The notes beneath the pieces are model-generated. The model was given only the letters and a program-made list of their open reading frames with translations, ran no database searches and was not told where the DNA came from. Positions 17,739 through 19,065 of a stretch of 64,000 nucleotides of DNA are shown here, in pieces (positions within the stretch are counted from its first letter, which is position 1; each line of letters opens with the position of its first letter). The stretch spans positions 231,570,001-231,634,000 of the forward strand of contig OZ024740.1 in the NCBI GenBank assembly GCA_964016885.1, written 5' to 3'. A program made the translations under genes and the position numbers. The stretch comes from Eledone cirrhosa. Taxonomy: Eukaryota.

Positions 17739-18246
17739 CATGACTATTTTCCTTTTAATGTTTTATTGTTTTCCGGGATTTATCTTAACCTATAACATAT
17801 TCAACATATGGATTACACCGAGTTCTTCATGCAGAATAGACCCCACAACTTACTGTGGATACCTCTGTGTGTGTGTATAAATATATATATATATATATAT
17901 ATATATATATATATATATATATATACACACACACACACGAGTGTGTATGATTGTGTATAGAAATAGAAGATTATATTAATAAAAGGAATTCCAACTTGTA
18001 TGTATATATATATATATATATATATATATGAATTCTTTTACAATGGAATTAGCTCGAAGGAGGAAATACCCCTGAGCCGTGTATAAACTAATATATATGA
18101 TGAAACACAGATACCAACACATCTGTATTTATATTGCAAAAGAAAATTTAGCCAGAATGAAGTATACTAATTATTATACTACAGCTTGTCCATATCGATT
18201 TAAAATAATAAATCAACAAAGACGAACTGCATTGCCAAATGGCTAT

Positions 18247-18374
18247 GATGTTTAGACACATTTAAATTTCAAAATCAAACCTGTTCCGTAGATAAGTTTA
18301 AACTTTAAAATCCAAATATGTTTCGAGATAAATAAGTGTAGGAATATCATGTCCTGCTCTCCTCAGTAAACATC
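18247..18374 (-). ncRNA. Type I hammerhead with an extended helix II and a very long helix III
   Basis: Minus strand: GAUGUUUA-CUGAGGA-GAG...CUC-GAAA-CAUAUUUGGAUUUUAAA...UUUGAAAUUUAAAUGU-GUC-UAAACAUC; 8-bp perfect helix I. Confidence 0.82.
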
Positions 18375-18757
18375 CAGGGACAAATTGATATGCTTCACTT
18401 CTAAATAATTTAAAAGACTGTGTAACGCACGTGGTATTACAGTTTCTAGCCAGTCTCATAATCGTACTGCTAGAAATAACAGTCGTATATATGAGGCGAC
18501 GTTCAGCTCAGACTAGGAGCAGTTATATTATTAAGTGTAATGAATTCTTTTACAATGGAATTAGCTCGAAGGAGGAAATACCCCTGAGCCGTGTATAAAC
18601 TAATATATATGATGAAACACAGATACCAACACATCTGTATTTATATTGCAAAAGAAAATTTAGCCAGATGAAGTATACTAATTATTATACTACAGCTTGT
18701 CCATATCGATTTAAAATAATAAATCAACAAAGACGAACTGCATTGCCAAATGGCTAT

Positions 18758-18885
18758 GATGTTTAGACACATTTAAATTTCAAAACCAAACCTGTTCCGT
18801 AGATAAGTTTAAACTTTAAAATCCAAATATGTTTCGAGATAAATAAGTGTAGGAATATCATGTCCTGCTCTCCTCAGTAAACATC
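18758..18885 (-). ncRNA. Second copy of the long-helix-III hammerhead
   Basis: Near-identical to 18247-18374. Confidence 0.82.
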
Positions 18886-19065
18886 CAGGGACAAATTGAT
18901 ATATATATATATATATATATATATATATATATATATATATATATATATATATATATTAAAATATATATATATATATATATATATATATATATATATATAT
19001 ATATATATATTAAAATATATATATATATATATATATATATATACATATACATATATATGAATATA

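Follow-up and report, generated by a model that had tools for sequence, protein, structure and literature searches.

A probable Penelope-type retrozyme superfamily in Eledone cirrhosa with a putatively pseudoknotted type I hammerhead and a doubled helix III

Metazoan non-LTR retrozymes are among the closest described counterparts of the repeat reported here, which resembles them in its non-coding, low-GC tandem units that each carry a type I hammerhead, and in the circular RNA intermediate and origin from Penelope-like elements (PLEs) proposed for them in the parts of the literature compared here (PMC7229834; bioRxiv 10.64898/2026.07.22.740005). Co-distribution and pLTR homology are the arguments given for their link to PLEs (Li, Clavereau and Pollet, bioRxiv 10.64898/2026.07.22.740005). 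In canonical type I motifs of Metazoa, helix III is 1-2 bp long with a palindromic loop, and the motifs act as dimers (PMC4209133, PMC7229834, PMC6765202). PLE insertions are described as partial tandems with truncated 5' ends, frequently accompanied by an inverted 5' copy, with a tail of 30-40 bp at one end and a bias towards microsatellites (Craig et al., bioRxiv 10.1101/2021.04.23.441226). The hammerheads in the pLTRs of PLEs (described by Cervera and de la Pena in 2014, PMC4209133) share with the present motif the type I order, a palindromic helix III, the U3-A8 variant and the PLE context; those of fungal and protist PLEs have a large helix III and are cut as monomers, without recognisable tertiary contacts between helices I and II (PMC4209133). 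Finally, pseudoknotted hammerheads were described by Perreault et al. (2011), who gave a type II consensus, a human example (C10orf118) with a 5-bp pseudoknot, and U3-A8 cores, and who report that the pseudoknot is needed for fast cleavage (PMC3088659). For cephalopods, the part of the giant squid genome paper considered here gives Rfam hammerhead counts only (PMC6962438).

The window that we analysed (64,000 nucleotides of the Eledone cirrhosa contig OZ024740.1, assembly GCA_964016885.1, positions 231,570,001 to 231,634,000) contains on its minus strand an insertion of a non-coding repeat of ~512 bp. The element spans 18902 to 18028 (18028..18902), a total of 875 bp or 1.7 units (unit positions 1-512, then 1-363), and lies between two (TA)n tracts, one at its 5' end (18899..19066) and one at its 3' end (17999..18029), the latter being the probable target site. 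A preliminary description had called this a ~512-bp dimer; the two hammerheads do lie 511 nt apart, but 512 + 363 nt do not make a full dimer. The longest ORF within the element is 58 aa and GC content is 0.329, so that tandem units each with a type I hammerhead, lack of coding capacity and GC below 50% are all found, as in non-LTR retrozymes, while a unit length of 511-560 bp across subfamilies falls outside the descriptive range of 150-450 bp reported for the metazoan elements (PMC7229834). The upstream hammerhead, copy A (18758..18902, minus strand, C17 at 18766, core at 18877), sits 511 nt before copy B (core at 18366); the insertion begins within its P0 5' strand (see below), which is without the distal AAGUG, and in its helix III one A-to-G change turns a U-A pair into U-G. 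These two copies were the only convincing matches in a covariance model search of the window. The predicted unit-length RNA, from cleavage site to cleavage site (18255..18765, minus strand), is 511 nt long and as a circle folds at -126.8 kcal/mol (z = -4.45, 40 shuffles), against -105.7 kcal/mol for the opposite strand.

All parts of the motif that the preliminary description had seen on the minus strand (8-bp helix I, CUGAGGA, GAG/CUC, GAAA and GUC) were located in copy B. Helix I is a perfect 8-bp duplex of GAUGUUUA (5' strand, 18367..18374, read from 18374 to 18367) with UAAACAUC (3' strand, 18247..18254, read from 18254 to 18247). It is followed by the core C3-U4-G5-A6-G7-G8-A9 (18360..18366), the helix II 5' strand GAG (18357..18359), its 3' strand CUC (18327-18325) with G12-A13-A14-A15.1 (together 18321..18327), helix III, and C17 of GUC at 18255, with cleavage predicted 3' of this base from hammerhead numbering. 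The order of strands is that of an ordinary type I hammerhead, with helix I open and three helices round the core, unlike the non-circular permutations treated in the consulted part of PMC10085705. Folding, which had been proposed as a check, gave a minus-strand region (161 nt, z = -3.36) that is more stable than 200 of 200 shuffles, none being equally stable. In Rfam, nothing reached the gathering score in the window, and no hammerhead family (CL00010) was returned for copies A and B at E<=10.

Homolog covariation, another proposed check, was assessed in an alignment of 31 natural copies (30 loci and the window copy), picked from 47 cluster representatives after leaving out copies with clipped flanks or long loop II inserts. 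Helices I and II both covary, with double changes in 5/8 and 2/3 pairs respectively, and the core pair C3-G8 (20 rows) is swapped to U3-A8 in 10 rows, a known natural and active variant (PMC3088659, PMC4209133), such that one or other pair is present in 30/31 rows. G10.1-C11.1 is present in 29/31, and G5, A6, A9, G12, A15.1 and U16.1 are invariant. Without prompting, RNAalifold recovered helices I, II and III, with double changes at 9/35 pairs. Over the whole fold, 91.9% of cells are paired, compared to 84.8% in shuffled alignments and at most 48.3% in slid controls; because the aligned copies are related, shuffle counts here and below are not probabilities. From the proximal part of P0 through helix I, the core and helix II, 24 columns are gapless in the 31 rows, and length variation is found in the linker.

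An independent pattern retrieved 986 matches (control 69), the first 100 of which were counted by eye with 4 unrelated rows dropped. Among the remaining 96 rows, the core pair is C-G in 58, U-A in 29, U-G in 9 and C-A in 0, and the U-G rows suggest a wobble intermediate between the two Watson-Crick states. H17 is a base other than C in 168 of 1,067 copies (A 96, T 3 and G 1 in the first 100 listed, mostly from one subfamily). In family A, among matches at >=88% identity, no variant common to at least 4 loci falls in the 29 columns of the core and helix I, compared to 66 in the 393 columns of the body, and singleton rates are similar in both. The window copies have a canonical type I core, and it is the G/H lineage that deviates, at positions 3, 4 or 10.1, having been amplified with U4A, U4C, or A3 or U3 opposite G8, in some cases with a C10.1-C11.1 mismatch. 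Covariation of helices I and II together with the C3-G8/U3-A8 swaps therefore argues that selection acts on the hammerhead fold, and on these sequence comparisons we consider it very likely that the type I hammerhead is real and under selection, and that the element is a PLE-type retrozyme.

One proposed feature did not hold up, namely an AGGA/UCCU hairpin extending helix II. The complement exists, yet its pairing probability is ~0.25 when 45 nt of 5' flank are included, it is paired in 80.0% of cells vs 76.9% when shuffled, its covariation is matched by 69/500 shuffles, and slid controls do equally well; hairpins local to loop II reach 0 to -4.6 kcal/mol. With the same 45-nt flank, loop II forms a duplex of ~20 bp with the nucleotides that immediately precede helix I on its 5' side. 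We refer to this helix as P0. In copy B its 5' strand is AAGUG..AUAUCA-AUU-UGUCCCUG (18375..18400, minus strand) and its 3' strand is CAGGACA UGAUAU..CACUU (18334..18356), which makes up most of the expanded loop II; a 6-nt linker (18328..18333) then returns to helix II and differs in length among subfamilies (6 nt for both A and H). None of the bases in helices I-III takes part in P0, which adjoins helices I and II without a spacer. A kink-turn at its 3-nt bulge was considered and rejected, as inspection by eye found no tandem G-A pairs.

P0 is paired in 88.6% of cells across the 31 rows (79.5% shuffled, at most 50.8% slid), with double changes at 8/15 pairs, including all 3 proximal ones, matched by 0/500 shuffles. 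In an alignment-free comparison of 16 copies, the duplex of each flank with its own loop averages -17.0 kcal/mol vs -12.2 kcal/mol when permuted (0/20,000), with the own loop being the best among loops of other families for only 7/16 flanks. Of the 96 rows counted by eye in the 986-match set (from its first 100), 94 have a complementary free middle pair, which is swapped in 17. The proximal triplet occurs as CUG/CAG, CAG/CUG and UCU/AGA, and in the tree of the downstream body, read by eye, these states (as CTG/CAG, CAG/CTG and TCT/AGA) are carried by separate clades, which implies ~3 separate changes; in one C subfamily (TAT/CAA) the proximal pairs are broken. The best-conserved part is the distal AAGUG/CACUU. 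More than the 4 bp expected at least of a pseudoknot thus join the extensions of helices I and II, and on sequence grounds P0 is most likely a helix I-II pseudoknot.

Metazoan retrozymes as described have contacts between loop 1 and loop 2 where P0 is found here. The pseudoknotted hammerheads of Perreault et al. (2011, PMC3088659) likewise have a helix running from beyond helix I to the 3' side of helix II, and by our mapping P0 is the type I permutation of their type II "loop I x 3' tail of stem II" pseudoknot. It is by its length that P0 stands out, at up to ~20 bp vs 4-6 bp for their pseudoknots in the text compared here, type I examples being included in the figures and alignments of that paper; in addition, P0 occurs in an animal retroelement of high copy number, whose subfamilies form a series of compensatory changes. 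The PK hammerhead 8YDC (Zhan et al. 2024, PMC11300833) also combines a hammerhead core with a pseudoknot, but according to the portion of that work consulted its pseudoknot replaces helix II and lies on a separate stem-loop (helix IV), whereas helix II is kept and covaries here.

Helix III (18256..18321, minus strand) is rich in G-U pairs. In copy B it comprises 21 uninterrupted pairs, 6 of which are G-U, a 1-nt bulge and 6 more pairs, so that the earlier estimate of ~25 bp was fair, and the suggestion that the G-U pairs work on one strand agrees with a helix III of -22.0 kcal/mol on the minus strand vs -2.2 on the other. At 27 bp it contrasts with the 1-2 bp of metazoan retrozymes (PMC7229834). 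The accompanying statement that metazoan repeats usually have a short helix III is right for canonical motifs, with their 1-2 bp (PMC4209133, PMC7229834 as far as consulted), and needs qualifying in that large versions have been described in fungal and protist PLEs, because of which a large helix III in a type I hammerhead is not unprecedented (PMC4209133). Both arms together form two tandem 36-nt units (18255..18326: 18326-18291 and 18290-18255) that are 73% identical, and Tandem Repeats Finder reports a period of 36/37 inside the helix. The unit is a GAAAC-palindrome-GUC of 36-37 nt that starts (U)GCGAAAC-like and ends GUC-like. Identity between the two units is 65-89% in 11/11 copies, where shuffling reaches 56-64% at most, and each arm is to a greater or lesser extent a wobble palindrome. 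Covariation differs from that of the other helices: across the 31 rows, 1/21 pairs shows a double change, 11/21 show one-sided changes, mostly A-U/G-U, and one pair is broken in 22/31.

From these sequences helix III likely arose by tandem duplication of the GAAAC-palindrome-GUC unit, which would explain the G-U wobbles. A-to-I editing as their source was rejected: in the unit body there is no strand bias (singletons A>G 20 vs T>C 24; shared variants 10 vs 11), and A residues of the 3' arm hardly vary. Since canonical metazoan motifs combine a helix III of 1-2 bp and a palindromic loop with activity as dimers, the two-unit helix is likely an intramolecular, built-in version of the dimer helix, and it is predicted that a helix of this length should allow the monomer to fold and be cut without a partner. 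Metazoan PLE motifs, as described, are minimal and need dimers (PMC4209133, PMC6765202); here the palindrome is ~30 nt long and doubled. One-unit forms are represented by subfamily H, whose 30-nt palindrome is near-perfect, and by scattered deletions. The H palindrome is calculated at -6 kcal/mol for the hairpin and about -20 for the dimer, the latter being close to the two-unit hairpin (-22). A pattern for intermediate lengths found 14 matches, which resemble deletions or duplications within known subfamilies, and family G shows signs of homogenisation. Family H looks derived by deletion from G-like doubles; the tree, being rooted at its midpoint only, does not fix whether the overall change went from one unit to two or the reverse.

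The 3.0-Gb assembly that contains the window was searched for further copies. The core pattern has 644 exact matches vs 0 for a reversed control, so it is not a product of chance. A pattern for the helix I 3' region of the window's family gave 1,067 matches, and a disjoint pattern for its relatives gave 1,566, hence the superfamily has at least 2,633 ribozyme 3' ends in this genome. The lead to the relatives, which have the helix III of the window unit and a different loop II, came from loose ends of contigs from four runs that match the element; these contigs served as a lead only, and runs with a low share of them are not taken as evidence on distribution. There are ~8 subfamilies (A to H), with the more distant ones ~72-80% identical to the window unit where aligned. 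The proposal of a further repeat family is thus borne out. Two members have unusual layouts. In subfamily F (L142, L173, L181) the loop II linker has grown to ~50 nt and is pyrimidine-rich, with P0 kept, and a GUA subfamily forms an array of at least 21 units at ~519-bp spacing (G000:C4:230480651-230492617), far longer than typical insertions.

Insertion architecture was examined in 120 family-A loci, 85 of them independent. Among the 141 arm ends in these 85 loci, 129 fall close to either unit position 309 or unit position 379, and of the arms in the strict classes (ending at 309 or 379), 110/112 abut TA repeats. One long and one short end are combined in 41/50 inverted pairs, which leaves a 70-nt tail on one arm only, compared to the 30-40 bp described for PLEs (bioRxiv 10.1101/2021.04.23.441226), and at 60/85 loci an arm is longer than one unit. 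Partial tandems, inverted 5' copies, a one-sided tail and microsatellite targets, the hallmarks of PLE insertion, are therefore all found. The one-sided tail and inversions are what these insertions add to the metazoan retrozymes as described, with the circle here being only predicted. The 3' ends of insertions are found 172 and 242 nt downstream of the cleavage site, across which the copies continue, a pattern that fits a circular or multimeric template. No insertion in 30 loci starts at the cleavage site (29 run into helix III and one joins 7 nt upstream), and 5' ends do not pile up there, with 1/141 arm starts lying no more than 5 nt away in a sample that favours ribozyme-bearing copies.

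At one locus (L159), a PLE ORF fragment is joined directly to a truncated superfamily copy, in one chimeric event. The PLE family of this fragment is young (605 candidates, the best 40 at 97-100%), has an intact 775-aa frame with RT and C-terminal GIY-YIG domains, a two-end pattern of its own, and a minimal hammerhead with a GUAC palindrome in its pLTR (by eye). The DKG motif and CxxxxCxxC linker of the protein suggest that it is a Neptune element. We consider it a candidate helper only, because the unit has no detectable homology with it, the chimera is single, and Naiads also target (TA)n; the homology comparison covered unit and pLTR in one PLE family (12 regions), with none detected. An intact young PLE of ~4.4 kb (L244:1500-5700 and L233-L244) has a frame of 476 aa without a Pfam match overlapping the subsequent 775-aa frame, which suggests a frameshift, and presents a two-ORF layout in an endonuclease-bearing PLE. 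In the window, a 90-bp end or tail fragment of an autonomous RT and GIY-YIG PLE (17908..17997, minus strand, 82% identical) lies next to the element in the same orientation, and is probably a separate, older insertion into the same TA tract. Immediately to the left of the element there is also a long inverted repeat (16737-17738), with arms of ~420 bp that are 95-99% identical and a spacer of 158 bp.

The non-coding, high-copy repeat thus likely moves as a non-autonomous Penelope-type retroelement, that is, as a non-LTR retrozyme. The full reading that we favour, with a probability of about 0.68 judged from sequence, is a PLE-type retrozyme with a monomer-competent type I hammerhead in which a pseudoknot clamps helices I and II. 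Read-through transcription of a tandem would yield an RNA with two hammerheads, in which P0 would fold first, with the core and the 5' strands of helices I and II held in its 18-nt hairpin loop. Helix III would then form, helices II and I would close onto this loop, and proximal P0 would take the place of the loop 1/loop 2 contact. Cutting after GUC would release the 511-nt unit, to be sealed into a circle probably by a host ligase. A PLE RT/GIY-YIG protein could then prime at the AT-rich positions 379 or 309 on nicked (TA)n, and copying through the ribozyme site would generate partial tandems and inverted copies. A more speculative extension, which we hold only tentatively and think rather unlikely as a whole, is that of a self-gating, self-dimerised hammerhead: duplication of the palindrome would have freed a dimer-dependent PLE ribozyme, and the ~20-bp P0 would be a two-state switch, with its proximal half acting as an activating pseudoknot while the RNA is transcribed, and distal zipping then parting helix II and shielding the finished circle.

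The main rival to the favoured reading is an inhibitory or two-state P0, owing to the geometry of the linker and to the predicted pairing. By geometric estimate, a 6-nt linker as in family A could probably not bridge the full ~22 steps of P0 while helix II is paired, unless the helix bends. In a pseudoknot-free model with flank, P0 plus helix III is preferred (-39.5, against -34.5 for the forced hammerhead), with pairing probabilities of 0.28 for helix I and 0.00 for helix II, hence P0 could be inhibitory. In its strong form, P0 is an off-switch whose full ~20-bp helix blocks helix II, so that circles and monomers stay uncut unless P0 is opened or bypassed. This would agree with P0 plus helix III as the predicted minimum in both the linear fragment and the circular monomer, with helix I open, with the conservation of distal AAGUG/CACUU and the short linker of families A and H, and with genomic copies that read through the cleavage site. 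However, the choice between P0 and the hammerhead is a forced one because ViennaRNA cannot form pseudoknots, the disjoint bases and gapless abutment of P0 in 31 rows are expected for coexistence, and known helix I-II pseudoknots, as far as the consulted text of PMC3088659 goes, raise activity. We consider a pure off-switch unlikely.

More doubtful still is the idea of a structural or protein-binding RNA of hammerhead ancestry, for which cutting is no longer needed and recognition by the helper is what is selected. Amplified subfamilies with U4A, U4C or A3/U3-G8 cores, the lack of 5' ends at the cleavage site in the 30 loci checked, and the weak activity of PLE hammerheads in vitro (PMC4209133) are in its favour, but a core pair that changes from C3-G8 to U3-A8 without a C-A state follows catalytic rules, as do the avoidance of G at H17 and the six bases invariant in 31 rows. 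Lastly, the helices might be DNA-level by-products of PLE inverted duplication and template switching in an ordinary satellite, with a hammerhead that is inherited and neutral. PLEs readily make inverted copies, and helix III is demonstrably a duplication, with homogenisation in family G. Yet the strand asymmetry of helix III (-22.0 vs -2.2 kcal/mol), the dominance of one-sided A-U/G-U changes in it, the depletion of shared variants in the core, and the fact that C3-G8 is not a hairpin pair all speak against such an origin, which covariation already largely refutes and to which we give hardly any credence.

Retrozymes, the PLE link, pseudoknotted hammerheads, U3-A8 cores and the large helix III of fungi and protists have each been published already. 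Their combination as a pseudoknotted hammerhead in a retrozyme, or a description of this family, was not found in the literature searched, though figures, supplements and repeat libraries may hold it. Hammerheads of animal repeats are known for a short helix III, a frequent dependence on dimers and the use of loop-loop contacts; the superfamily would represent another design, missed by Rfam, in which a long covarying pseudoknot joins helices I and II and helix III results from duplication, and its thousands of copies in ~8 subfamilies are ready-made compensatory mutants. The one-sided tail and inversions tie retrozyme insertion to PLE enzymes by mechanism, vs the co-distribution and pLTR homology put forward previously (bioRxiv 10.64898/2026.07.22.740005, as far as consulted). 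If P0 gates cleavage, this bears on how retrozyme circles avoid cutting themselves. Should the self-gating reading be true, the subfamilies would offer a natural mutational series (one or two helix III units; C3-G8, U3-G8 and U3-A8; three pseudoknot registers), making monomer vs dimer cleavage and circle protection in animal retrozymes directly testable.

Several other hammerhead repeats are present in the window. A 310-bp array (19766-31017) consists of 99% identical units, of which ~29 lie on one strand and 7 on the opposite one, with the inversion at 28860; its units have a type I hammerhead with a short helix III, HH9-like at 23 bits (below threshold), and it looks like a conventional retrozyme with a PLE-type inversion. 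A 316-bp array of 9.3 copies (36219-39160) has by eye a hammerhead with the U3-A8 core UUGAUAA on the plus strand, and a 438-bp repeat (39518-40900) has ~3 minus-strand copies, whose CUGACGA hammerhead has a short helix III, and a further, inverted copy at 40813. Single hammerhead-like motifs lie on the plus strand at 9400-9470, 45665-45750 and 63415-63480, the first of which is a clean three-way junction in the minimum-energy fold, unlike the other two. The window also contains a GC-rich 25-bp minisatellite of 27 copies (9838-10522).
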